Below, piece after piece: positions 23,212-45,224 of a stretch of DNA of 45,483 nt. A program made the position numbers and the translations under genes. Each line of letters starts with the position of its first letter. Position 1 is the first letter of the stretch. The notes beneath the pieces were generated by a model that worked only from the letters and a program-made list of their open reading frames with translations, ran no database searches and had not been told where the DNA came from. Location of the stretch: assembly GCA_044233345.1 (NCBI GenBank), contig JBIIKD010000001.1:1-45483 (forward strand), in the 5' to 3' direction. Origin of the DNA: Chlamydiia bacterium (lineage in GTDB: Bacteria > Chlamydiota > Chlamydiia > Chlamydiales > 2-12-FULL-49-11).

Positions 23212-24803
23212 TTGTTATTAATGATTTGAGCTACCAGCACGGAGATAGAGTCCTTTTTATGGGGGCAACCCTAAATTTGTCTAGCCGCCATCGCTACGCG
23301 ATTGTAGGCGCTAATGGGTGTGGAAAGTCAACCTTGCTTAAATTAGTTGCAGGGGATGTAACTCCCGATTTGGGCGAAATTATCCTTTCTAAGGGATCGC
23401 AAATCGGGTGGCTTAGACAAGATCAGTTCAAATATGAGGATGATCCTATTGTCGATGTGGTATTGATGGGGCGACAAGAGCTTTGGAAGTGGATGCAAAA
23501 GAAGAATGAGCTTTTGGAGTCAGAAGAATGGAGTGATGAAATTGGCCATGAAGTGGCAAAAGTTGAAGAGAAAATTGAGCACTTAGGGGGATATGCAGCC
23601 GAGGCAGAAGCAGAAAAACTTCTCATGGGACTTGGTATTGGCGTAAAATACCACAGTAAATCGCTTAAGACCCTTTCAGGGGGATTTAAATTGCGGGTGC
23701 TTTTAGCTCGTACTCTTTTTTCAAACCCGAATATTTTGCTTCTTGATGAACCAACAAACTACCTAGACATCGTTTCAATTGCATGGCTTGAAAGATACCT
23801 TAAATTTGATTTTTCTGGACTTCTCCTTTTTGTTAGCCATGATCGGGAATTTTTAAATCGTCTTTCTACTTGCGTTTTAGATATCGACTATGGAGAGATA
23901 CGGGAATATCCAGGCACATATGAGTCCTTTTTGGAGAAAAAGAAAGAGACGGTAGAAAAAATATTGCAAGAAAAAGCCCATATAGAAAGACGAGTTGCAG
24001 ATATTCAAACTTTTATTAACAAGTTTAAGTATAAAGCAACAAAGGCAAAGCAGTGCGCATCTCGTGAAAAAATGATCGACAAAATTGAGTGGCCCGATGT
24101 GAAGAAGAGCTCTAGAGTAGCACCTAAATTTCGTTTTCGAAAGAAGCGTCCCTCTGGGCAAACTGTTCTTCAAACAAAAGGGATCACAAAGGGATATGAA
24201 GATAAAATTGTTCTCTTTGATGTATCTTTCCGAATAGAGCGGGGAGAAAAAATCGCTATTATTGGTCCTAATGGAATTGGTAAATCTACACTTTTAAAGA
24301 TCCTTACCGAAAATTTGCAGGCAGATGAAGGCGCTTTTCAGTGGGGGTTTGAAACTCATGTTTCTTATTTTGCTCAAGAAGCTTCAGAGCTGCAAAAAAT
24401 GCCTTTACGAATCACTGATTGGTTAAAAGAGGCCACATCTGCCTCTGATCAAGAAGTGCGGGACGTTCTTGGCAGAATGCTTTTTTCTAATGATGATGCA
24501 AAAAAAACACTCAATATTTTAAGTGGTGGAGAGATAGCTCGCGTTGTGTTTGCTCGGATACTCATTGAACAGGGAAACGTCCTTCTTCTTGATGAGCCAA
24601 CAAACCACTTGGACATTGAATCGATCGAGGCTCTTTCAAATGCACTTAAGGAATATGAAGGGACCCTTCTTTTTGTAAGTCATGACCGCGCCTTTATTGC
24701 AGACCTCGCCGATCGAATTATTTTGATCACGCAAGAGGGAGTGCAAAACTTCCAAGGGACATTCGATGAATGTAAGGAAAAGTTAAACCTTCCTACGAGT
24801 TAA
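23208..24803 (+). CDS. ABC-F family ATPase (two ABC domains, no TM domain; EttA/YbiT-like)
   Basis: Two Walker A motifs (GANGCGKST, GPNGIGKST) and two LSGG signature motifs. 531 aa. TTG start with an AGGAG RBS. Confidence 0.88.
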   Translation: MIVINDLSYQHGDRVLFMGATLNLSSRHRYAIVGANGCGKSTLLKLVAGDVTPDLGEIILSKGSQIGWLRQDQFKYEDDPIVDVVLMGRQELWKWMQKKNELLESEEWSDEIGHEVAKVEEKIEHLGGYAAEAEAEKLLMGLGIGVKYHSKSLKTLSGGFKLRVLLARTLFSNPNILLLDEPTNYLDIVSIAWLERYLKFDFSGLLLFVSHDREFLNRLSTCVLDIDYGEIREYPGTYESFLEKKKETVEKILQEKAHIERRVADIQTFINKFKYKATKAKQCASREKMIDKIEWPDVKKSSRVAPKFRFRKKRPSGQTVLQTKGITKGYEDKIVLFDVSFRIERGEKIAIIGPNGIGKSTLLKILTENLQADEGAFQWGFETHVSYFAQEASELQKMPLRITDWLKEATSASDQEVRDVLGRMLFSNDDAKKTLNILSGGEIARVVFARILIEQGNVLLLDEPTNHLDIESIEALSNALKEYEGTLLFVSHDRAFIADLADRIILITQEGVQNFQGTFDECKEKLNLPTS

Positions 24804-26388
24804 TCCTTGCAATTTTTTGAATTTCTTCTGGATCTAAATTAAAAAGAATTACATCAACCCCTTTACTATTGAGTTCTCTTAATAGTTCAGGGGAAATGGT
24901 TATAAATGCATTATCCGCTATATTCAAGCTTTTTAAATGAGATAATGAGCTGAAATTTGTAGATATTTCATCAATTTCATTTTCTGAGCAGTTAAAATTT
25001 ATTAATCGATTGCAGTTTGTGAGTGATTTTGGAAGTTCCTCTAGAGCATTTTGGGAAATGTCTAACCACTCTAGTTGAGAGAGATTTCCTAAATTTGAAG
25101 GAAGTATGTAGAGATTGTTTTGCCTAAGCCAAAGTTCCTTTAAAGAGGTCATTTCACAAATCCTTTCATGAATTTGGGTAAGTTGATTGTGCTCCAAATT
25201 AAGAGAGCGCAGATCTTTTAAAGAAAGAAAGGCTGTCGGGTGTATTTCAGTAAGTTGATTGTAGGAAAGATCAAGAGAGTGTAATTCTGTAATAAAAGCT
25301 TCGTGGGAAAAAATGTGCGGTAAACAAGATAGGTTTAGTCCGCTCAGATCTAAACTATTTCCGTCGCTATCATTAATAAATTCCATAATGCGTAGCCATG
25401 CCATAAATCGGTTTTCTCCAGGGGCATCTTCTAAAGCCCAGCTATCGAGATTTGATATTGGATCTTCGAGCTGAATAAGATGGAGATTTTGTAGATCGTT
25501 AACTGACTTAGGGATCCCTTCCTTTTGTAGTTCGTTGCCGAATAGGGATAGTGTTTTTAAGCGTTCAACAAATACAACTCCGTTAAAAATATCGGGTAGA
25601 GAACGTAAGTGTAAATTGTTTAGATCTAATGTTAAGAGGGTTTTGTTTTCTATAAAATTAAGAATTCGATTTTTTGCCTCTTCTCGATTTTCTGTAGAGG
25701 AGCCTTCCATTGCCCAGGCATCTAATAAAGAGTATTCTAACTTAGGTTTTACACATATTATCGGAAGATCATCAGAAACTTCAATTTTAATAATTTGAAG
25801 AGCACTTAAGGATTTACTAGATATTTTAGAAAGGGCAGAAAGGGAAACCCCATTGATTTCTTGTAAGCATTGTAAATTTTCTAGTGAAGAAGGGAAGGAA
25901 GCGATTAGATTTCCATCTAAATTTAGAGTTTGTAATCTTGTTGTAAAAGCGCTATGTAAAAAAACATCAGGTAATGTAGTTAAATCAAAATCACGTAAAT
26001 CAAGAGTCGTTTCAGAAGGACTTTTGATAAATTCCTCAATCGCTAAAGCGGCAAGTCTTCTTTGTCCTTTGTTGGAGTATCCATCTTCAGTTTCAATCCA
26101 CGATGTTAATAAATGATCGATAGATTCCTCTCCGGAGGAAGAAAGTACAGTCCACTCTGATAAATGAATAGAGTCTGTAGATGCAAAATCTAATTGAATT
26201 GAGGGTGTTGAGGGGCTAACAGGTGAAGAAGGGGGAGTTTGAGTTGTTAATGCTCTTTTGAATGGAGCGGTTACTGCGTTTGCTATATCAGAAAATCGGT
26301 CCCAAAAAGAGGGCGTGGATGTTTGGGGGGCTTCTCTATTTTGGTTAAAATCGTTTATTGGTCTTCGTGAATAAAAAGCGGAATCCAT
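24793..26388 (-). CDS. leucine-rich repeat protein, T3SS-effector-like (IpaH/SspH-type LRR caps, no NEL domain)
   Basis: Pro/Ser-rich N terminus. Three ~70-aa modules each begin W..E...ENR..A..RI..FI....LDL..L.L..LP, followed by LxxLxLxxNxL repeats (LDLSYNQLTEI, LNLEHNQLTQI, LDISQNALEEL). Confidence 0.8.
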   Translation of the reverse strand: MDSAFYSRRPINDFNQNREAPQTSTPSFWDRFSDIANAVTAPFKRALTTQTPPSSPVSPSTPSIQLDFASTDSIHLSEWTVLSSSGEESIDHLLTSWIETEDGYSNKGQRRLAALAIEEFIKSPSETTLDLRDFDLTTLPDVFLHSAFTTRLQTLNLDGNLIASFPSSLENLQCLQEINGVSLSALSKISSKSLSALQIIKIEVSDDLPIICVKPKLEYSLLDAWAMEGSSTENREEAKNRILNFIENKTLLTLDLNNLHLRSLPDIFNGVVFVERLKTLSLFGNELQKEGIPKSVNDLQNLHLIQLEDPISNLDSWALEDAPGENRFMAWLRIMEFINDSDGNSLDLSGLNLSCLPHIFSHEAFITELHSLDLSYNQLTEIHPTAFLSLKDLRSLNLEHNQLTQIHERICEMTSLKELWLRQNNLYILPSNLGNLSQLEWLDISQNALEELPKSLTNCNRLINFNCSENEIDEISTNFSSLSHLKSLNIADNAFITISPELLRELNSKGVDVILFNLDPEEIQKIARINS

Positions 26389-26693
26389 AATAACTCACAA
26401 TTTAAAATAAATGTTTAATAAATAATAACATAATTAAAATTATAATTAAAGCGCATTTTTTGATTAATTAGCATGCAATAAATAATTAAGTTAAACTTAA
26501 GTCTTTAGTTTTAATGCATTTATGGAATAAAAAAATGTGCGCACCTTTAGTTTTTTTTATAAAATTTTTTTTATTTGATCGGGCTTTTTATTATAAACAA
26601 ACATTTGTTTATTACATGTAGATATTAAATTATTGATATTAACTTTGAATGCATGTACTATTTTCTTTTAATTATGTTCTTAGGAGAGTAATA

Positions 26694-28094
26694 GTGAAGA
26701 AGGCGCTCGCGAAATGTTTAATTCTATTAGTTGGTTTTTTTCAGCTCTTTTATATTCAAGGAGCTTTTGGTGGTTATCAAGAAAATAGTTCTGAGAAATT
26801 AGACCTCCCAAGTCAATTTCTTTGGGGAACAGCGGTTTCTGAGTTTCAAGTATCAGGTGCAGAAAATTGCCCAAACGCTCAGTGGGCTAATTGGGAATCT
26901 AAAGGAAGCCCTTATATTAAAACAGGAGATAGGACTGGTAAATCTGCAGACCATTGGAATCGATATAGAGAAGATATTCAAATAATGAAGGATATGGGGG
27001 TTAATTCATTCCGGTTTTCTATAGAATGGAGCGCTATTGAGCCTGAAGAGGGGGTGATTAATGAAGCTGCGTTGGATCATTATATGGACGTTTTTGATGC
27101 CTTAGATGAAGCGCAAATCACACCAATGGTTACTTTATATCATTTTACGCATCCAAAATGGTTTGAAGATTTAGGTGCCTTCGAAAAAGAGAAAAACATC
27201 GAATATTTCACTCGATTTTGTAAGCTTATTTTTCAAAGATTTGGAGATAGAGCTCCTCTTTGGTGCACAATGAACGAACCTAGCGTTATTGTTTTAGAAG
27301 GATATATGCTCGGAGAATTTCCTCCCGGAAAGAAAGATTATGCCCTGGCTGGAGAAGTTTATCGTAATTTGCTTTTTGCTCATTGTATGGTATACGAGGC
27401 CTTAAAGGCGATGCCTGGTGGAAAAGAGGCGCAAATAGGAATTGTTCATGCTTATTTAAAACTAAAGCCTTATCATACATGGAATCTAATTGAGTCTTAT
27501 CCTTGTTATTACATGAATGAAAATCTCAATAATGCAATGATGCGATTTCTAAAAACGGGCGTTTTTAACTTTTATTTTCCTTTTATGGTCGATATTTCGA
27601 CCCAATTTGTTGGTGCTCAAGAGATGTATGACTTTATTGGTCTTAACTACTACTCAAGCCCTTTAATTACGCTTCAGTTTTCTTTTTCCGATCCCCTTGT
27701 AAGCACTTGTTTTGAAGGTGAGATGATGACTGATATGCCTTATAGAAGTTATCCAAAAGGATTTTATGATGCTTTGGTGGATTGTAATTCTCTTCGTAAG
27801 CCAATCTATGTCACAGAAAATGGAATTGCGGATGCTAGAGATGATCGACGTAGTGATTTTATTGGAAGCTATCTTTCTGCTATGAATCAGGCAGTTAGAG
27901 ATGGGTGTGATGTAAGGGGATATTTTTATTGGTCCTTTATTGATAATTTTGAATGGGCAGAAGGATGGAAGATGAGATTTGGCCTTTATGAATTTGATCC
28001 TGTGACAAAGGAAAGAAAGTTAAAGGAAGGGGCAAAAACCTATCAAAATAAGATAAGAGAGGCTAAGCAACTTTCTTATGCACCTCGAGATTAA
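26694..28094 (+). CDS. glycoside hydrolase family 1 beta-glucosidase, secreted (signal peptide)
   Basis: GH1 catalytic motifs TMNEPS (acid/base) and YVTENGIAD (nucleophile), plus the FLWG.A.S.FQ N-terminal motif. GTG start at 26694, preceded by AGGAGA, gives the signal peptide VKKALAKCLILLVGFFQLFYIQGAFG. Confidence 0.8.
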   Translation: MKKALAKCLILLVGFFQLFYIQGAFGGYQENSSEKLDLPSQFLWGTAVSEFQVSGAENCPNAQWANWESKGSPYIKTGDRTGKSADHWNRYREDIQIMKDMGVNSFRFSIEWSAIEPEEGVINEAALDHYMDVFDALDEAQITPMVTLYHFTHPKWFEDLGAFEKEKNIEYFTRFCKLIFQRFGDRAPLWCTMNEPSVIVLEGYMLGEFPPGKKDYALAGEVYRNLLFAHCMVYEALKAMPGGKEAQIGIVHAYLKLKPYHTWNLIESYPCYYMNENLNNAMMRFLKTGVFNFYFPFMVDISTQFVGAQEMYDFIGLNYYSSPLITLQFSFSDPLVSTCFEGEMMTDMPYRSYPKGFYDALVDCNSLRKPIYVTENGIADARDDRRSDFIGSYLSAMNQAVRDGCDVRGYFYWSFIDNFEWAEGWKMRFGLYEFDPVTKERKLKEGAKTYQNKIREAKQLSYAPRD

Positions 28095-28507: not shown

Positions 28508-29872
28508 ATGGGATTGTCAAAATTAAAAAATCTTTTTCGCCTTTTTTATATAAAAAAAACACCGACTAAATCCCAAGAACAGGGTGTAAAAAAAGAAGAT
28601 TTTTTTTGTAATTTTCTTTGGGGATCGGCAGTTTCTGAATTTCAGGTATCGGGAGCAGAAAATTGCCCCCATTCTCAGTGGAGTGATTGGGAGTCAAGGG
28701 GAGTGCCCTATATTAAAAATGGTGATCGGAGTGAAAAATCGGTTGATCACTGGAATCTTTATAGAGAAGATATTCAAGAAATGAAGAAATTAGGGCTTAA
28801 TTCCTTTCGATTTTCGATAGAATGGAGCTCTATTGAGCCTAAAGAGGGTTGCTTTGATGAAACTGCTATAGACCATTATAAAGATGTTTTTGATGCTTTA
28901 GATGAATTTGAAATGACACCAATGGTTACCTTATATCATTTTACTCATCCGAAATGGTTTGAAGATTTAGGTGCTTTTGAAAAAAAAGAAAATATTGAAT
29001 ATTTTATTCGATTTTCTAAGTTTGTGTTTGAGCGATTCGGAAATAGAGCGCCTCTTTGGTGTACTATTAATGAGCCCTCTTCGATTGTTTTAATGGGATA
29101 TATAAGAGGGGAATTTCCTCCTGGCAAAAAAAAATTAGCCCTTGCAGGAGAGGTGTATAAACATCTTCTGGAGGGCCACTGTAGGCTATATGCGGCTTTA
29201 AAAGAGCTTCCTTTTGGAAAAGAAGCTAAAATAGGACTCGTTCATGGATATTTAAAGTTAGAGCCTTACCACTCATGGAATCCTATAGAAAGTATCCCTT
29301 GTTATTATATGACCAGAAATCTTCATGGAACAATGATGGAATTTCTTAGGAATGGAGTTTTTAACTATTACTTTCCCTTTAAGGCGAATGTTTTTGCCCG
29401 ATTTATTGGAGCTAAAGATATGTATGATTTCGTTGGGCTCAATTATTACACAAGAGCTGTGATTTCTATGCAGTGGTCTCTTTCAGAGCCTCTTATAGGT
29501 ACATGTTTTAAAAATGAAGTGATGACTGATATGCCTTATGGTATTTATCCAAAAGGGCTTTACGATGCACTATTGGATTGTAATACGTTAGGGAAACCAA
29601 TCTATATTACAGAAAATGGGATTGCAGATGCTGCAGATGATCGGCGTGATCGTTTTATCATTGAGCATATTTCTGCTATGAATCAGGCGATGCTAGATGG
29701 ATGTGATGTAAGAGGATATTTTTATTGGTCCTTTATCGATAGTTTTGAATGGAATAATGGAAAAGAAATGAAATTTGGTCTCTATGAATTTGATCCTACA
29801 ACAAAAGAAAGAAGACTAAAGAAGGGGGCTAAAATTTATCAAAACATTATAGAAGAAACAAAACAATATTGA
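28508..29872 (+). CDS. glycoside hydrolase family 1 beta-glucosidase paralog (no signal peptide)
   Basis: TINEPS and YITENGIAD motifs. About two-thirds to three-quarters aa identity to the upstream paralog by eye. Confidence 0.8.
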   Translation: MGLSKLKNLFRLFYIKKTPTKSQEQGVKKEDFFCNFLWGSAVSEFQVSGAENCPHSQWSDWESRGVPYIKNGDRSEKSVDHWNLYREDIQEMKKLGLNSFRFSIEWSSIEPKEGCFDETAIDHYKDVFDALDEFEMTPMVTLYHFTHPKWFEDLGAFEKKENIEYFIRFSKFVFERFGNRAPLWCTINEPSSIVLMGYIRGEFPPGKKKLALAGEVYKHLLEGHCRLYAALKELPFGKEAKIGLVHGYLKLEPYHSWNPIESIPCYYMTRNLHGTMMEFLRNGVFNYYFPFKANVFARFIGAKDMYDFVGLNYYTRAVISMQWSLSEPLIGTCFKNEVMTDMPYGIYPKGLYDALLDCNTLGKPIYITENGIADAADDRRDRFIIEHISAMNQAMLDGCDVRGYFYWSFIDSFEWNNGKEMKFGLYEFDPTTKERRLKKGAKIYQNIIEETKQY

Positions 29873-31398: not shown

Positions 31399-32691
31399 TT
31401 AGTAGATGTAGGGTAGAATCTTGTAGGGTACTTTTGAGCAATGTTCAGCCCAAGCATCGCCATATTTTTCTCTACACCGTTTATCATCTCGATTGGCACG
31501 ATCAAAGAGAAGAGCGGTTAGAAAAACTACATAAAAATAAGGAAAAAAATGACTGAAAAGAGCTGGAAGGGACCAGGAAAAAGCGGCTAGAATTTCAGGA
31601 ATATAGTGAAAGTGTCTTGCAAGACCCCAAAAACCAGAGGCGAGAAGAAGATTTTCTTTTTCTTGGCCACTATTTGTAATGTAAGTAGCAACAGTAAAAT
31701 CTGGGGAATTTTTCCAAATTTTTACATTTTCTCCATGTTCACGAAAAAGCATTCTTTGTCTATCGGCAAGATAGTTAGTTGCAATAAAAAGGGAACCTAG
31801 AAGAAATAGACCTAAAAGAAGAGTCGTTGACAGTTGTATTGGATGATGAACTAAATAAAAAGAGGTAGATGTGTACACTGAAGGGACCCACACAAGAGTT
31901 CCCCAGCAGATATAAAATCCTGCTTTATCATGCATGATGTCAATGGATCGAAGGTAGCCAGCTTCCCAATAAAAAAACTTTATCACGTAGATGATTTGTA
32001 AAGTAGTAGATAAAATTAGGCTATTTGAAAGACCATATAGTTCTGATTGAGCAGAGCAGTAGGATATAAGAAGAATAGGCCAACTCATCATTCCAAATCT
32101 ACAACTAGTGAATTGTTTTACGTCCCATCCACAAATTTTAGGGTAAAGTTCGGTGCCCCAGAAAAAATCGAAAGCAATATTTCCTGTAAACAGAGTGTCT
32201 GGACCAGAAGGAAAGAATTTTCCTTTTGCATAGAGAAGAATACAAAATAAGAAACTCCCTAAACAAAGAGCGCCAATAATTTCTCCAAAATGGAAATAAA
32301 TCAAGGTAGGAGAGAATAAATGTAGGCCAAATGAAAGAGTGACGTAGGTAAATATTGTAATCAATAAGGAAAGAAGACCGTTATCTTTATATTTGGGGAT
32401 ATAATGATTGGGAGTTTCTGGTCCTTTGATGATTTTTCCAGGAACCATTTTCAAAAGAGCAAGTTCAAAAAGAGCAAATACAATAATCGACGTCCAAGCT
32501 ACTTTAGATCCCAAAAAAACAGGAGCCCAAATCTGATACGTAGTAGAGAAAAAACCATGTTTTTGAAACAACATTAAAAGAAGTTTAAACGAGCCATCTA
32601 AAAAAGCCCCTGTATACCAAAGCAGTACAGCAAAGACCGGGCATGCAATGGTTAAAAAAATGGTCCCTAATGTATGACGAAAAAATCTCAT
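31399..32691 (-). CDS. sterol reductase family protein (ERG4/ERG24/7-dehydrocholesterol reductase-like)
   Basis: 430 aa, ~9 TM helices. C-terminal signature LLASGFWGLARHFHYIPEILAAFSWSLP ... GDAWAEHCSKVPYKILPYIY matches the eukaryotic sterol reductase family signature (LLxSGWWGxxRHxxY). Confidence 0.85.
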   Translation of the reverse strand: MRFFRHTLGTIFLTIACPVFAVLLWYTGAFLDGSFKLLLMLFQKHGFFSTTYQIWAPVFLGSKVAWTSIIVFALFELALLKMVPGKIIKGPETPNHYIPKYKDNGLLSLLITIFTYVTLSFGLHLFSPTLIYFHFGEIIGALCLGSFLFCILLYAKGKFFPSGPDTLFTGNIAFDFFWGTELYPKICGWDVKQFTSCRFGMMSWPILLISYCSAQSELYGLSNSLILSTTLQIIYVIKFFYWEAGYLRSIDIMHDKAGFYICWGTLVWVPSVYTSTSFYLVHHPIQLSTTLLLGLFLLGSLFIATNYLADRQRMLFREHGENVKIWKNSPDFTVATYITNSGQEKENLLLASGFWGLARHFHYIPEILAAFSWSLPALFSHFFPYFYVVFLTALLFDRANRDDKRCREKYGDAWAEHCSKVPYKILPYIY

Positions 32692-39593: not shown

Positions 39594-40664
39594 ATGGGGG
39601 AGGGTGTTTTGGATTTTGTCCAGTTTTTAGGACAGTGGCCCTGGTGGGTTCCTATTATCGTTGTTTTTACAGGAGCAGTTGGACTTCATGTATTTCTAAA
39701 CCTCTTTTATAGATATGGATTTCCTGATGAAAGGAAAAGAGGAAGAGAATGGCCAGCAATTATTTTACGAGCGGTAAAGTTTCCTCTTAAATTATTTGTT
39801 TGGCTTTCCTTTATATTTTTCATTGTCTCGCTATATGCGAATGAATTGTTTGAAATTAGTTTAGTGAATGTCATTTCTAATTTGTTTCAAGTAGGATTTA
39901 TTGCTTCTCTATCGCTTACTTTTTATACGTTTGCTAGGGAATTAGAAAAACATTTTCTTATAAAACGGCATTACGATCGCACTTCTGTTGAGCTTTTTTC
40001 TAAACTAAGTTTAATGGTCATTATTTTTTGTACTCTTATTATTATTCTACCCCTTTTTGGAATACAGATAGGTGGACTTTTAGCGTTTGGAGGATTTAGT
40101 GGTATTATCGTCGGTCTTGCTGCAAGAGATGCAATTGCGAATATTTTAGGGGGTATTATTATCGCTTTAGATAGACCTTTTCGAATTGGAGAATGGATCT
40201 ATTCAGATAATGGAAAGATAGAGGGGCATGTAGAACATATTGGATGGAGATTAACGAAAGTTAGGCAATTTGATAAGCGGCCTATTTTTATTCCAAACTC
40301 TATGTTTTCAAGTATGGTCTTTGTAAATGCTACTAGAGCAACAAATCGAAGGGTTTTAAAGACATTTATGATCCGTTATCAGGACGTATCAAAAGTGTCT
40401 CAAGTTCTTCAAGGAATCAGAACCTATATTAAAGAAAGTCGAGAGATCGATCAAGACCAGTCGAATTTTGCGCACTTAGAAGATTTTGCCGATAGTAGCG
40501 TTGATATTCTTGTTAGAGTTTATTCAAAGACCGTAGATGATAAAGAATTCAGAGTTTTTCAAGAAAAAGTACTTTTTGATGTATACAAAATTATAAGAGA
40601 AAATGGGGCAGAAATGGCGTTTCCTACGAGTATTGTATACCTTAAAAAAGAAGGGGAAAAATGA
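39594..40664 (+). CDS. small-conductance mechanosensitive channel MscS family
   Basis: 3 N-terminal TM helices, then GGLLAFGGFSGIIVGLAARDAIANILGGIIIALDRPFRIGEWI (MscS signature region). Confidence 0.8.
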   Translation: MGEGVLDFVQFLGQWPWWVPIIVVFTGAVGLHVFLNLFYRYGFPDERKRGREWPAIILRAVKFPLKLFVWLSFIFFIVSLYANELFEISLVNVISNLFQVGFIASLSLTFYTFARELEKHFLIKRHYDRTSVELFSKLSLMVIIFCTLIIILPLFGIQIGGLLAFGGFSGIIVGLAARDAIANILGGIIIALDRPFRIGEWIYSDNGKIEGHVEHIGWRLTKVRQFDKRPIFIPNSMFSSMVFVNATRATNRRVLKTFMIRYQDVSKVSQVLQGIRTYIKESREIDQDQSNFAHLEDFADSSVDILVRVYSKTVDDKEFRVFQEKVLFDVYKIIRENGAEMAFPTSIVYLKKEGEK

Positions 40665-42064
40665 AACTTTGGATCATCGCCCAAAAAAAATGGGTAAAAA
40701 CTATATTCGGTATTATTGTTTTTGCGTTTTTTCTAACAGTATACACTATTTCTATGGCGGTCGATCGTCATTACCAGGGTATTGAAGTGAATTTTCGTGC
40801 TCAAGGATCTCGGATAAATAAGGCACAGTTAGATCAAATCCTTCAAAAATATCAGGAAATAGGTTGGTATACTAAAGAAGAGCTACGCTTAAGCCATCAG
40901 TATCATGCTCCCTCTTTTCAAGTATTTGGAAAATCTATTCCTGATTTTGATCGAACGATTCTTTCTCTTCGAAGTTTAGATATTTTCTTACATGGTAGAT
41001 ATGTAGATTACCTAGAATTTATAAACGGGCAGGAAAAAAAATCTAAGCTTTCTTGGGATGAATTTAAAGACATTCAATCCCATGCAAGAGTTATCACAAA
41101 GCAATATAGAATGCTTAGCCATGAACAAATTATTGAAGTTCTAAAGTTTGCACTTGTTTTAGATAGATTAGCCAGCTCTTCGATTGTGCAAAACAAAGCA
41201 TGGATTTACGAAATTGTTGGAAGAGAAGATAGAAGATTAGTAAAGGTTGTCCTTGAAAAACATCCAGATATATTTCCCTACTATAGCAAATTAAATCTAA
41301 TGCAACAAAGATTTCTCCATGAAATATTTGCTCTTATTGATTTAAACGAGGTTTTGGAATTGGGTGATATGATGCGAGTTTTTGTAGAAATACGACTTTC
41401 CAATCTATTAAACTTAAATCCAGAGCTTTTTGAATTGGCCTTTTTTCTTGAGCAATGTCGTTTAGCAGGTGCCAGTGGCGATATAAATAGTTTTAGTTCT
41501 CAAACTATTACCACAAGTGTTTATCAAAATTTTCAAGCGATACGAATGGCTTTTTCTCTTTTAAAAAACGCAACAGAGAAAGATGCATTTAAATTTTACC
41601 TAGCTAAGCGGGCACTATGGCTTGGGGTTGATCCGGGATCTCCATTAAATCGTGTATTGACTCGATTTGGTGCTATGATGGAATTGTATCAAGAACAAGA
41701 GGGGAAAATTCTTAAAGAGGCATTTTTACGCCTTCCCGCAGAAGAACTTGCCCTGATAGTTAAAGAATTTGATGAATTTCAAACACCAACATATCAACGA
41801 TCATATGAAAATCTCTCTTTGTTTTTAAGAAATTTAAGTGAAAATCGAAATGTTGGACAAAATGATAAAGAGCGCTTAGCAGAAACTGTAAAAACAGGTA
41901 TTTCTTTTTTAGCAAAAGTAGCAAAAATTTGCAGTAAAGAAGAGAAGTCTTTCGAGCGAGTAGATTTATCTGCTGTTTCAGTTATTGCTATAACAAATCC
42001 AGAACTATTGCAAGAGGGGAATATCACTTTCGATAAAAAAGGAAAGATTCACCTTATTCCTTAG
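40661..42064 (+). CDS. hypothetical protein with single N-terminal TM helix (467 aa)
   Basis: Long ORF whose start overlaps the mscS stop by 4 nt. No recognisable motifs. Confidence 0.45.
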   Translation: MKLWIIAQKKWVKTIFGIIVFAFFLTVYTISMAVDRHYQGIEVNFRAQGSRINKAQLDQILQKYQEIGWYTKEELRLSHQYHAPSFQVFGKSIPDFDRTILSLRSLDIFLHGRYVDYLEFINGQEKKSKLSWDEFKDIQSHARVITKQYRMLSHEQIIEVLKFALVLDRLASSSIVQNKAWIYEIVGREDRRLVKVVLEKHPDIFPYYSKLNLMQQRFLHEIFALIDLNEVLELGDMMRVFVEIRLSNLLNLNPELFELAFFLEQCRLAGASGDINSFSSQTITTSVYQNFQAIRMAFSLLKNATEKDAFKFYLAKRALWLGVDPGSPLNRVLTRFGAMMELYQEQEGKILKEAFLRLPAEELALIVKEFDEFQTPTYQRSYENLSLFLRNLSENRNVGQNDKERLAETVKTGISFLAKVAKICSKEEKSFERVDLSAVSVIAITNPELLQEGNITFDKKGKIHLIP

Positions 42065-42953
42065 TAGATTTGTTTCGAAGATCAATGAAAGGAATGGTTT
42101 CTCCAACAATTTGAGGAAGCTTCCCATCCCATTTTTGTAGAGCTTCCCATTGGATAAGTTCTTGGGTAACAGACGCTGCTACTAATTTATTCGATTCGGC
42201 TTCTGCTTGAGCTTCTAAAATAGCGCATCTTGCAGCACCCTCAGCAGTAGCTATGTTCTTTTTAGCTTCCGCCTCCGCTTCCCGCAGTTCGTTTTCTCTT
42301 TGCTGAGCTCTTTGTACAGCTTCAATTTTTGCATTGAGAGCTTTAATCACATTGTCAGGAAAGTGAAAACGACCGATGAGATAAATACGACGAAGCTCAA
42401 TACCTAGATCTTTTAAATCCTCTGAGACATGACTTTCTACCAAATCAAAGAACCCTTCTTTTTCCTTTCCGTAGAGATCTTCAATCGTCATTTTAGATGC
42501 AGATTTATTAATAGCATCTCGAATAAAGTTTCGAATAAACGTATTTGTAATTTCATCCATACCTCTTCGGTATCTTTGAAAAATCATAGGGACAGAAGAT
42601 GGATTTAATCTAAATGTAATTCCAATCGAAGCTGAAATCGCCATCCCTTCAGATGTTTGAAAGTGAAAACACTCTTTATCTGTTTCCCACATCTCATTTT
42701 GCTCAAATATAGGAAATTGATAGACGGTTTTCCAAGGGGGAATCCAATACATTCCTGCATGGAGTTCATTGCTCTCAACACCTCTACTAGAACCAAATTG
42801 GTTTACTATAACACCAACATATCCAGGAGATATTCGGGTTAAAAAGCAAATCCAGATAATAAGCGTTCCCAAGGCTGCTAAGCCGCCTAAAATGGCATAT
42901 TTATTCTTCATTCTTAGAGCCTTTGGTTTTTCAGTAATCTCTATAGTTTGCAT
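42054..42953 (-). CDS. SPFH/band-7 (HflK/C-prohibitin-like) membrane protein
   Basis: N-terminal TM helix, SPFH core, and C-terminal coiled-coil Ala/Glu-rich segment QRAQQRENELREAEAEAKKNIATAEGAA. Confidence 0.8.
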   Translation of the reverse strand: MQTIEITEKPKALRMKNKYAILGGLAALGTLIIWICFLTRISPGYVGVIVNQFGSSRGVESNELHAGMYWIPPWKTVYQFPIFEQNEMWETDKECFHFQTSEGMAISASIGITFRLNPSSVPMIFQRYRRGMDEITNTFIRNFIRDAINKSASKMTIEDLYGKEKEGFFDLVESHVSEDLKDLGIELRRIYLIGRFHFPDNVIKALNAKIEAVQRAQQRENELREAEAEAKKNIATAEGAARCAILEAQAEAESNKLVAASVTQELIQWEALQKWDGKLPQIVGETIPFIDLRNKSTKE

Positions 42954-43080: not shown

Positions 43081-43425
43081 TTGATTTTTTTTGTTTATTA
43101 TTTATTTTTATTAATTATGGAGAGAATAAATAAAGACTACATAAGCAATGTTCGGTATTTAGATTCAGGTAAATTAAAACCTGTTCCTGGTGCAAAATTT
43201 ATGCAAGCCTTGGATGACACTTATGGAACACAACAAGTACAAAAAGCCGTTTCATGGTTCTTTTCTTCTGAAACAAGTGCTAAATATAAAAAAGGAATGA
43301 AAGAGTTCCAAGGACGTCTCATCAATGGTATGACGAATCTTGGAAACTTGTCTGTTGATGATCAAAAGTATTTGGCAAATGTAGTACATGGCGTTGCTCT
43401 AGGAATATTTTCTGTAACAAAATAA
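43081..43425 (+). CDS. hypothetical protein
   Basis: 114-aa ORF (possibly starting at MERINKDY). No motifs recognised. Confidence 0.3.
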   Translation: MIFFVYYLFLLIMERINKDYISNVRYLDSGKLKPVPGAKFMQALDDTYGTQQVQKAVSWFFSSETSAKYKKGMKEFQGRLINGMTNLGNLSVDDQKYLANVVHGVALGIFSVTK

Positions 43426-43511: not shown

Positions 43512-45224
43512 TTATTCGTTTCCTGCTTTCTTCTCTGGCGGCAAGGTATAATCATTAGCAATGTCTGTGAGGCCGGCTGAGTTTAGAAGATCTCGATATT
43601 TTGAAAGTCTATCTGATTCAGTACGCATAAAATCTTCTCTGAGTTGGGTGAAATTTGTGATCAAAAGGTGAAAGTCTTGTTTTCTAATTGCTAAAAGTTC
43701 GCAATCTTCTATACATCTTACTGTAGCTGAGCGACGTTTTTCTTTTAAAAGAGCCATTTCCCCAAAATATTGTCCTTGTTCGAGGGTTGCGATTGGAATT
43801 TCTTTGCCATCTTTTGTTTCTAAAACAGAGACTTTCCCTTTTGCAATGATGTATAGATAATCACCTACATCTCCTTTATGAAAAATTGTTTCGCCTGAGG
43901 CATAGTGAAGGTGGTTAATTCCACTTCGATACTCTATTTTCAATTGGACTGGCTCTTGAGGAACAATAAAATCAAGTAACCAGGTGATGAATACTTTAAT
44001 TTTTCTATTTACTCCAGGCAGTTTAATCCAATAGATAAAACGCCAAGCAATCCAAGCGATAAAGCCAGAAAGTTTGATGAATCCAAACATTTCGGCTACA
44101 GCTCTTTTATGACCAAGTGCAGCCATCATTCCAAGAGCTGTAAACGAGAATTTTTTTAAGGGGCCTTTTTCTTTTATCGAAGAAAATATATTTTCCGCCA
44201 CACACTTTCCTTGTCTTACTGCAAATTGAGCTGTAGGCGGGCAATAATGTAACTCTATTTTTGCAGGGACTGCTGCGCAATCTCCAAGAGCCCAAATATT
44301 TTTTGTTCCTTTTACAAGTAAGGTTTCATCAGTAAGAATAAGATCTTTTATTTTTTCAAACGGAAGTGTCTCTATTAATGGATTGCAACTCGAAGGTACT
44401 GTGGAGACAATGGTGCTTGAAGGAATACGCTTTCCATTGTCAAGAATCGCTTCATAGGGCGTTGCTGATCTTAAGTGTGTATTAAAAAGGATCTGCACAC
44501 CCCGTTTCTCTAAGATTTTTGCGCAATATTTTCCAAGAGAGGGGGGCAGTTCTTTATAAACAAGCCGATCTTTACTATGTATTAGATAGACACTAATCTC
44601 TTTAGGATCAACTAACGGATACATTTTTATAATTTTTCTTGCAAAGTCGTTGATTTCAGCAACCACTTCAACGCCAGAAAATCCTCCTCCTCCCACGATA
44701 AAGGTTAGAAGTTGTTTTCTTACTTTAGGGTTATCTTCTTGCGCTGCAGTTTCAATTACATCTATAATTCTATTACGGATCTTTAGGGCATCAGCTAAGT
44801 TTTTAAAACTTAAGGAGTGTTCATGAAGACCTCCGGGACTATTTCTAAAGTCTGTTACATTACCAAGAGCTAATACAAGGTGATCATAATGTACTCGTAA
44901 ATCGGTATGATCAAAGTTTGGGGAAAGTGTAACCATCTGATTTTCAATGTCAATCTCTGATATTTCTCGTACGTAAATATGGGTATGAGGAAGTAATTCT
45001 CTTAGCGCACTTACAGAATCAAGAATTCCTATCGAACCGCCTACGATTTCAGCAAGCATAGGATGAAAAACAAAATAGTTATCTCTATTCACGAGAACAA
45101 TTTCTATTTCATCTCTACAATGTTTAGTGAGTTTTTCTAAACGGCGAGCAGCATAGACTCCTCCAAAACCTCCTCCAAGAATAAGAATAGTTTTTTTCTC
45201 TAGAGGTTTTTGCCGTTTTTTCAT
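43512..45224 (-). CDS. ndh: type II NADH:quinone oxidoreductase (NDH-2) fused to a C-terminal cyclic-nucleotide-binding domain
   Basis: Two dinucleotide-binding motifs (ILGGGFGGVYAA, VGGGGFSGVEV), NDH-2 C-terminal amphipathic anchor region, then a CAP-family cNMP-binding domain (FHKGDVGDYLYIIAKGKV...YFGEMALL...RSATVRC). Confidence 0.8.
   Translation of the reverse strand: MKKRQKPLEKKTILILGGGFGGVYAARRLEKLTKHCRDEIEIVLVNRDNYFVFHPMLAEIVGGSIGILDSVSALRELLPHTHIYVREISEIDIENQMVTLSPNFDHTDLRVHYDHLVLALGNVTDFRNSPGGLHEHSLSFKNLADALKIRNRIIDVIETAAQEDNPKVRKQLLTFIVGGGGFSGVEVVAEINDFARKIIKMYPLVDPKEISVYLIHSKDRLVYKELPPSLGKYCAKILEKRGVQILFNTHLRSATPYEAILDNGKRIPSSTIVSTVPSSCNPLIETLPFEKIKDLILTDETLLVKGTKNIWALGDCAAVPAKIELHYCPPTAQFAVRQGKCVAENIFSSIKEKGPLKKFSFTALGMMAALGHKRAVAEMFGFIKLSGFIAWIAWRFIYWIKLPGVNRKIKVFITWLLDFIVPQEPVQLKIEYRSGINHLHYASGETIFHKGDVGDYLYIIAKGKVSVLETKDGKEIPIATLEQGQYFGEMALLKEKRRSATVRCIEDCELLAIRKQDFHLLITNFTQLREDFMRTESDRLSKYRDLLNSAGLTDIANDYTLPPEKKAGNE

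Follow-up and report, generated by a model that had tools for sequence, protein, structure and literature searches.

An NDH-2-type flavoenzyme fused to a cyclic nucleotide-binding domain in Chlamydiia, and its possible control by a cyclic nucleotide

Can the flow of electrons into a bacterial quinone pool be set directly by a cyclic nucleotide? This question is raised by one gene in a 45,483-nucleotide stretch of DNA from a Chlamydiia bacterium (contig JBIIKD010000001.1 of assembly GCA_044233345.1, positions 1 to 45,483), which was analysed over its whole length and is referred to here as the window. NADH dehydrogenases of type II (NDH-2) are usually treated as simple, unregulated, single-subunit electron entry points, and are a drug target in pathogens; we know of no characterised precedent for direct control of a respiratory dehydrogenase by a cyclic nucleotide monophosphate (cNMP). 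The gene, at 43512-45224 on the minus strand, is one open reading frame (ORF) with an ATG start, no internal stop and its stop codon at 43512-43514, and a Shine-Dalgarno-like AAGGGAG motif lies about 10 nt 5' of its start. Its 570-amino-acid product, which has a 100% identical database entry named 'NADH dehydrogenase' (P0001), is a complete NDH-2-type flavoenzyme joined in one frame to a cyclic nucleotide-binding (CNB) domain. From the comparisons set out below, we consider it reasonably probable that the protein is a cNMP-gated NDH-2-type NAD(P)H:quinone oxidoreductase.

The domain composition of the protein was determined with Pfam, which assigned four domains, each above its curated cut-off. 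Pyr_redox_2 (PF07992, E 7e-32) spans residues 12-339 and takes in both Rossmann folds (44208..45191, on the minus strand like all features of the gene given below), while Pyr_redox (PF00070) spans residues 176-254. NDH2_C (PF22366) was found at residues 365-419 (43968..44132), with 34.3 bits against a cut-off of 27.7, and cNMP_binding (PF00027) at residues 440-522 (43659..43907), with an E value of 6.7e-27 and 93.7 bits against a cut-off of 27.5. The initial annotation of this gene had placed a complete NDH-2, including the membrane-anchor helices, at residues ~1-430 and a CNB domain at ~440-560, and had proposed a search for PF07992 and PF00027; with both domains found, its two boundaries proved accurate to about 10 residues. 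In NCBIfam there was no specific curated model for the fusion protein, all matches being far below cut-off.

Motifs, Pfam assignments and fold all place the catalytic part in the NDH-2 family, and NAD(P)H:quinone activity is predicted for it. In a search of PDB sequences, the best solved relative of residues 9-392 was the NDH-2 of Caldalkalibacillus thermarum (4nwz, E 2.9e-39). A model of the whole protein was then obtained with AlphaFold2 (AF2) from an alignment of 119 sequences, with a mean predicted local distance difference test score (pLDDT) of 88.6 and a predicted template modelling score of 0.85. The Pyr_redox_2 core of this model superposes on 4nwz, and the Foldseek comparison with 4nwz_A gave a target-normalised template modelling (TM) score of 0.92 and a root mean square deviation of 2.2 Å (E 2.2e-34). 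The top Foldseek matches in the PDB were all NDH-2 or Ndi1. Because the query-normalised TM score was never above 0.66, no solved PDB structure covers both domains. The FAD-binding GxGxxG motif (GGGFGG, G17-G22, 45159..45176) and the NAD(P)H-binding motif (GGGFSGVE, residues 179-186, 44667..44690) are both present; G17, G19 and G22 of the former and G179, G180, G181, S183, G184 and E186 of the latter are invariant in the 119 sequences, as are G314 and D315. The NDH2_C region consists of a beta-sheet followed by two amphipathic helices rich in Trp, Lys and Arg, which form the predicted membrane anchor. These helices lie at residues 388-401 and 405-420 of the AF2 model, and W391, W394, R395, Y398, K401 and W415 are invariant.

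At two sites the catalytic part departs from the canonical NDH-2 sequence. The quinone-site motif, PPTAQFAVRQ (residues 329-338, 44211..44240), has P329, A332, Q333, A335 and R337 invariant. Its AQFAVRQ portion keeps A332, Q333 and A335, but the second canonical Gln is replaced by R337, with Q or E at 338, so that the motif reads AQxAxR instead of AQxAxQ. The other site is the segment H216-S-K-D-R220, with which beta2 of the NAD(P)H fold ends (44565..44579); in it H216, invariant in the same alignment, aligns with the Glu of 'INVE' in the C. thermarum enzyme, the acidic NADH-specificity residue. We considered H216, R220 and R337 as possible signatures of the fusion, and this was ruled out: H216 and R220 are common to the closest unfused NDH-2 relatives, and R337 is invariant in the fused proteins and in these unfused relatives alike. 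H216, R220 and AQxAxR are therefore traits of a subfamily and not consequences of the fusion. In NDH-2, losing the acidic residue at the end of beta2 permits the use of NADPH, and the H-x-[KR]-D-R pattern resembles HRRxxxR, the site for the 2'-phosphate of NADPH in thioredoxin reductase. Since the acidic residue is replaced and the motif has this resemblance, the subfamily, fused enzyme included, may accept or prefer NADPH as its donor. The missing acidic residue bears on donor specificity and not on membership of the NDH-2 family. One homologue is labelled 'NdbB' by its source.

The CNB domain follows the anchor helix at 405-420 through a short linker of about 15 residues (420-435, 43920..43967), which is without secondary structure in the AF2 model (pLDDT ~75-79). 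In front of the barrel there is no helix that belongs to it; the anchor helix of the NDH-2 part takes that place in the chain. The strands of the beta-barrel were modelled at residues 436-514, with helices at 515-524, 526-549 and 553-560 after them. These post-barrel helices (residues 515-560, 43545..43682) correspond to the hinge and lid (alphaB/alphaC) of CNB domains, and R539 within them is invariant. The phosphate-binding cassette (PBC), FGEMALLKEKRRSAT, occupies residues 487-501 (43722..43766). The motifs FGE(M)AL and RSAxVxC that the initial annotation had picked out are present as FGEMAL at residues 487-492 and RSATVRC at 498-504, both inside the PBC region. In the PDB sequence search, residues ~433-556 matched the CNB domains of PKG, of PKA regulatory subunits, of Bd1971 (E 4e-17) and of CRP; in NCBIfam, the model of mycobacterial Pat (NF058543) was matched at E 2e-10, below its cut-off and at the domain level only. 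With the canonical Gly-Glu...Arg-x-Ala cassette intact, the CNB domain is predicted to be ligand-competent. Neither HTH_Crp nor Crp was matched in Pfam, and the CRP/FNR-type models of NCBIfam matched the sensor part only, far below cut-off. Because no helix-turn-helix (HTH) follows the CNB domain, the domain comparisons indicate that the fusion protein is not a CAP-family regulator. The description 'CAP-type' given by the initial annotation is thus apt for the sensor domain but not for the whole protein.

That the joined architecture is genuine and has been conserved is evident from relatives of the protein. The 120 best matches in the databases are 54-89% identical to it and 528-586 amino acids long, and they were drawn from assemblies of NCBI, JGI, ENA and Logan; PF07992 and PF00027 occur in every one of them and PF22366 in nearly all. 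As to source, most bear the names Chlamydiae, Chlamydiia, Chlamydiales, Simkaniaceae, Simkania or Neptunochlamydia. Exact-sequence look-ups located the fusion in Neptunochlamydia sp. REUL1 and in Simkania negevensis Z, whose genome is finished and whose protein is entered as CCB88552.1, WP_013943019.1 and UniProt F8L737 (there named 'Cyclic nucleotide-binding domain protein'). The junction residues V426 and Q427 are invariant or nearly so. The initial annotation had cautioned that two adjacent genes might have been joined by a frameshift or an assembly error. We give this practically no probability, since the frame is uninterrupted and the same junction recurs in hundreds of independently assembled sequences, among them the 120 best relatives, as well as in the finished Simkania genome; a frameshift or misassembly is excluded by this recurrence.

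The binding cassette is conserved to the same degree as the junction. All 119 of the 119 close (chlamydial-type) homologues keep G488, E489, R498 and A500, and F487 is invariant with them; the first four and both GxGxxG motifs are also kept in an acidobacterial orthologue. The second caution of the initial annotation, that the C-terminal domain might be a non-binding relic lacking the conserved Arg or Glu, is ruled out by this invariance. As judged from the alignment, the cassette is under strong purifying selection.

The fusion extends far beyond the Chlamydiae. A phmmer search of 1.84 billion cluster representatives returned 1460 proteins at E<=1e-30. Among the best 150 representatives at 50% identity, 75 were fusions of an NDH-2 core and a CNB domain, 31-51% identical to the query, and in these 75 divergent representatives the CNB domain begins about 5 residues past the end of the NDH-2 profile, a fixed junction length. 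At E<=1e-20, a profile built from 24 non-chlamydial members then matched 7982 proteins, of which the best 120 have the four-domain architecture without exception, under names that include Acidobacteria, Pyrinomonadaceae, Deltaproteobacteria and Candidatus Binatia. One orthologue of 538 amino acids was located in a metagenome-assembled genome of Terriglobia (L003:6854-8470), and another came from Elusimicrobia. More elaborate architectures also occur: in a Pfam scan of ten decorated variants (P0149, P0164, P0165, P0169, P0174, P0162, P0170, P0141, P0142 and P0144), the core was followed by C-terminal FHA domains (one to three copies), a CBS pair or TPR repeats, and in some it was preceded by an N-terminal DoxX or aquaporin-like MIP domain. 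In a test for a single origin of the fusion, by crude average-linkage clustering of 134 NDH-2 cores, in which some 'unfused' members are possibly truncated gene calls, fused and unfused proteins interleave. The names under which the relatives are stored ('NADH dehydrogenase', 'FAD-dependent oxidoreductase', 'cyclic nucleotide-binding domain-containing protein') are automatic. By these searches, NDH-2-CNB fusions are a large family, widespread across several phyla, for which no experimental characterisation was found. The survey of Chlamydiae and the wider PVC group (Planctomycetes, Verrucomicrobia and Chlamydiae) that the initial annotation had suggested thus found every close chlamydial homologue fused, but the architecture is neither rare nor confined there.

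Support for a link to a cNMP signal comes from the genomic neighbourhoods of the non-chlamydial orthologues. Class III nucleotidyl cyclase domains (PF00211) were confirmed by Pfam and by a local profile on six-frame translations. A cyclase was found within ~4.5 kb of the fusion gene in six of the seven non-chlamydial loci, directly adjacent in two of them, and none was found within 10 kb in the eight chlamydial loci, the window included (Fisher p=0.0014). In locus L037 fusion gene and cyclase gene share a strand, the latter overlapping the former at its 3' end, and in L039 a DUF5939-cyclase gene, also on the same strand, ends 38 bp upstream. Locus L041 has an FHA-GAF-cyclase gene ~1 kb downstream and an FHA-CNB-HTH_Crp regulator upstream, and L040 has a HAMP-cyclase gene 2.7 kb downstream. 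In the deltaproteobacterial locus L038 a GAF-GAF-PAS-cyclase gene lies 1.75 kb downstream, together with a PDEase_II/Apyc1-like gene and, by the fusion gene, a stand-alone CNB protein of 97 amino acids (10620-10913, plus strand). In L042 the cyclase gene is 1.5 kb upstream on the same strand, amid multihaem cytochromes and a CNB-ferredoxin protein, and an Apyc1-family hydrolase of the metallo-beta-lactamase fold (93.6 bits against a cut-off of 50) begins 56 bp downstream. Two loci, L038 and L042, therefore have a phosphodiesterase (PDE)-like gene beside the fusion and the cyclase. In the Terriglobia locus L003, which spans 14 kb, a cyclase is absent; directly upstream of its fusion gene, at 5755-6336 on the plus strand, is a gene for a membrane-anchored CNB protein of 193 amino acids with N-terminal hydrophobic helices. 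Further CNB proteins were thus seen near the fusion gene in L003, L038, L041 and L042. The linked cyclases bear the sensory domains GAF, PAS, HAMP and FHA. The initial annotation had inferred that the fusion couples the respiratory NADH entry point to a cyclic-nucleotide signal; the coupling to a cNMP gains from the cyclase and PDE linkage of the non-chlamydial orthologues, whereas 'NADH entry point' is uncertain, as H216-S-K-D-R may point to NADPH.

The L042 cluster can also be described on its own account. The genes for the CNB-ferredoxin protein, the multihaem cytochromes, the cyclase, the NDH-2-CNB protein and the Apyc1-like hydrolase lie on one strand (2584-12578, plus strand), and from its gene content the cluster looks like a cNMP-controlled electron-transport island.

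We favour cNMP gating because the cassette is intact and conserved, because orthologues are linked to cyclases and PDEs, and because there are precedents for enzymes with a fused CNB domain. The key steps of the proposed mechanism would be as follows. A peripheral-membrane flavoenzyme would carry electrons from NAD(P)H to the membrane quinone. A 3',5'-cyclic nucleotide, either cyclic AMP (cAMP) or cyclic GMP (cGMP), would bind the PBC residues G488, E489, R498 and A500, and its binding would move the hinge and lid helices at 515-549. In solved NDH-2 the C-terminal helices form the membrane anchor and the quinone entrance. As the CNB domain hangs directly on the anchor helices, the movement of the lid could change how the enzyme docks to the membrane, how quinone gains access or how the dimer is arranged, and electron input would in this way be switched up or down post-translationally. 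The chlamydial copies would still answer a cNMP, made by a cyclase not linked to the gene or taken from the host. A more specific version of the last step, that in the obligately intracellular Chlamydiae the fusion has been uncoupled from the cyclase of the free-living phyla and reads a nucleotide not of the bacterium's own making, host cAMP or cGMP reaching the inclusion, seems to us doubtful. If it were true, the signalling state of the host cell (e.g. amoebal encystment or developmental transitions) would directly switch chlamydial respiratory electron input, whether from NADH or from NADPH.

Several observations weigh against gating by a cNMP. No cyclase was detected in the whole 45-kb window by Pfam analysis of its 33 ORFs or by the profile scan, nor was one seen less than 10 kb away from the gene in the chlamydial loci L001, L002, L034 (Simkania), L035, L036 and L043 or in the P0044 locus. 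The search for adenylate or guanylate cyclases recommended by the initial annotation thus succeeded in the non-chlamydial loci but not in the chlamydial ones. A recognisable cNMP phosphodiesterase was likewise absent from the window and from within 10 kb in the seven other chlamydial loci. In the wider family, the PBC is strictly canonical in only 35 of the 75 divergent representatives; its arginine is lost in some branches, notably the forms of 670-700 amino acids, and in many CBS-type members. On this evidence, the CNB domains of some branches work without a cNMP. The identity of the ligand could not be read from the cassette either. Elsewhere, sensors of cAMP and of cGMP can in part be distinguished by the residue that follows the PBC arginine, but here this position, 499, varies freely among the homologues (S, N, T, I, L, F or M), and an assignment from it was rejected.

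If the domain answers no ligand at all, the chlamydial CNB would be a CNB-homology module of the kind exemplified by KCNH channels, with a constitutive structural, dimerisation or membrane-proximal role, or a partner-docking one. The lack of a cyclase near any of the eight chlamydial loci speaks for this, and the many divergent branches that have lost the PBC arginine have retained the domain, which implies that a CNB domain is useful here beyond cNMP binding. However, a PBC invariant in 119 of 119 sequences that are 54-89% identical would be difficult to account for unless phosphate-ribose binding were selected for, and orthologues with the same PBC adjoin cyclases; we therefore regard a ligand-independent domain as rather unlikely for the chlamydial proteins. 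Another alternative is a different ligand, for which the unconstrained position 499 speaks. Instead of cAMP or cGMP, the CNB domain would bind a cNMP of the pyrimidine or the 2',3' kind, or a metabolite that is not a nucleotide, and the enzyme would be tuned by it. CNB folds have been re-used elsewhere in the CRP/FNR superfamily, for haem in CooA and for 2-oxoglutarate in NtcA, and the CNB domain and the linked cyclases match the Pycsar CNB effector and PycC models at the domain level. Sensors of non-nucleotide ligands are, however, generally without the canonical G-E...R-x-A cassette that is intact here, and the linked cyclases carry GAF, PAS, HAMP or FHA sensory domains and match Guanylate_cyc (51-175 bits), four of the five scoring lower there than with the PycC models (45-99 bits). 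Such a ligand is in our view unlikely.

The pairing of a cyclase with a protein bearing a CNB domain also invites comparison with abortive infection of the Pycsar type, in which a phage-triggered cNMP would cause the NDH-2-CNB protein to drain NAD(P)H or to generate reactive oxygen species, leading to cell death. Besides that pairing, the Apyc1-family hydrolase beside the gene in L042 and the domain-level PADLOC matches to PycTIR and PycC fit such a system. The PADLOC matches have modest scores, though, and extend over no more than the CNB or cyclase domains that the proteins have in common, and the sensory domains of the linked cyclases are of housekeeping types. The genes around the fusion in L042 belong to electron transport (cytochromes and ferredoxin-type proteins), and the chlamydial gene is vertically conserved in housekeeping synteny without a cyclase, unlike defence islands. 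Membership of Pycsar was rejected on a match of 41 bits to the CNB part of PycTIR only, the lack of a TIR or transmembrane effector domain, and the housekeeping neighbours; a Pycsar-like role is very improbable. Control of an NDH-2-type enzyme by a cNMP thus remains the reading that we prefer, on the evidence of cassette and linkage given above.

The remaining features of the chlamydial loci are given for context. These loci share an ordinary synteny, with a convergent DUF6829 gene and genes for MscS, YchJ-like, MFS, NUDIX, tRNA methyltransferase and DsbB proteins, and no conserved signalling neighbours were found in them, only the DUF6829/MscS/MFS/YchJ-like synteny. This shared gene order is also in favour of the window being chlamydial. 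In the window the convergent DUF6829 gene (PF20717, ~467 amino acids) lies at 40661..42064 on the plus strand; its equivalents are at 11706-13109 (minus strand) in L036, in the same position, and at 11725-13125 (minus strand, 466 amino acids) in L035. Between this gene and the fusion gene are an SPFH/Band 7 gene (42054-42953, minus strand) and an orphan ORF of 114 amino acids (43081-43425, plus strand). Elsewhere in the window, a 430-amino-acid protein of the ERG4/ERG24 sterol-reductase family, a eukaryote-type enzyme, is encoded at 31399-32691 (minus strand; Pfam E 1.2e-71), and a eukaryote-like leucine-rich-repeat protein of 531 amino acids, which could be a host-interaction effector, at 24793-26388 (minus strand). 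Two tandem genes of glycoside hydrolase family 1 (GH1) are located at 26649-28094 and 28508-29872 (both plus strand); a GH1 gene is also found near the Simkania orthologue, at the start of L034. Finally, an ORF of 601 amino acids between pyrH-like and rpe genes (6959-8764, plus strand) has no Pfam match at E<=0.001.

If gating by a cNMP is correct, environmental sensing would act through these proteins, quickly and post-translationally, on the quinone pool's redox state and on the NAD(P)H/NAD(P)+ ratio. The protein itself is already in databases, and its architecture would not surprise a specialist browsing InterPro; the present analysis adds the linkage to cyclases, the finding that the binding cassette is invariant, the extent of the family and a possible specificity for NADPH. 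The cyclase linkage makes cNMP control readily testable, and for the Chlamydiae the fusion raises the question of where the signal originates.

How, then, does the fusion protein compare with known systems? Like the solved NDH-2 of C. thermarum (4nwz), Staphylococcus aureus (5na1) and mycobacteria (9mqy), it has two GxGxxG Rossmann folds, the GD motif and the NDH2_C anchor. The solved bacterial enzymes, to which it is ~28% identical, end after the anchor helices, whereas the fusion continues into a CNB portion of 150 residues; they have AQxAxQ and an acidic residue where it has AQxAxR and a His in H-S-K-D-R. The external NDH-2 of plant and fungal mitochondria that bear an EF-hand (NDB1 of potato and Arabidopsis, NDE1 of Neurospora) are Ca2+-dependent, and some accept NADPH. 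To our knowledge these are the only well-known NDH-2 with a second-messenger module, for Ca2+, of their own. Their sensor is a eukaryotic Ca2+-binding insertion, not homologous to the C-terminal CNB domain of the fusion. Pycsar systems, in which PycC is paired with a transmembrane or TIR effector bearing a CNB domain, resemble the non-chlamydial loci in having a cyclase gene beside the gene of a CNB sensor; unlike them, the fusion has no TIR or pore-forming killing domain, and its chlamydial copies have no adjacent cyclase.

In full-text literature searches no experimental or dedicated computational study of an NDH-2 bearing a CNB domain was found, in keeping with the remark of the initial annotation that this architecture is not known among characterised NDH-2, and none is reported in PMC9816063 or PMC8242063. 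The only entry was a catalogued one: Kannan et al. 2007 (Genome Biol 8:R264, Table 1, family 13; PMC2246266) list a 'Bact_Pyrredox' family of CNB proteins with an N-terminal Pyr_redox domain, and suggested that CNB domains may touch NADH-related processes. Compared by description, Bact_Pyrredox has tandem CNB domains with the PBC consensus GEMGLISGRRRGATVRA, while the fusion has one CNB domain. Closer in design are two enzymes controlled by a CNB domain of their own. Mycobacterial Pat is a cAMP-dependent acetyltransferase with a fused CNB domain. Bd1971 of Bdellovibrio is described as a cNMP-EAL phosphodiesterase under cAMP control (PDB 6hq2-6hq7; PMC6717892). Like the fusion, both join a single CNB domain with a canonical PBC to a catalytic domain, and in both the control that cAMP exerts on catalysis is allosteric. 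In the fusion, unlike in Bd1971 and Pat, the output is a membrane-associated flavoenzyme of respiratory type, and the CNB domain is C-terminal, carried on the helix that anchors the enzyme to the membrane.

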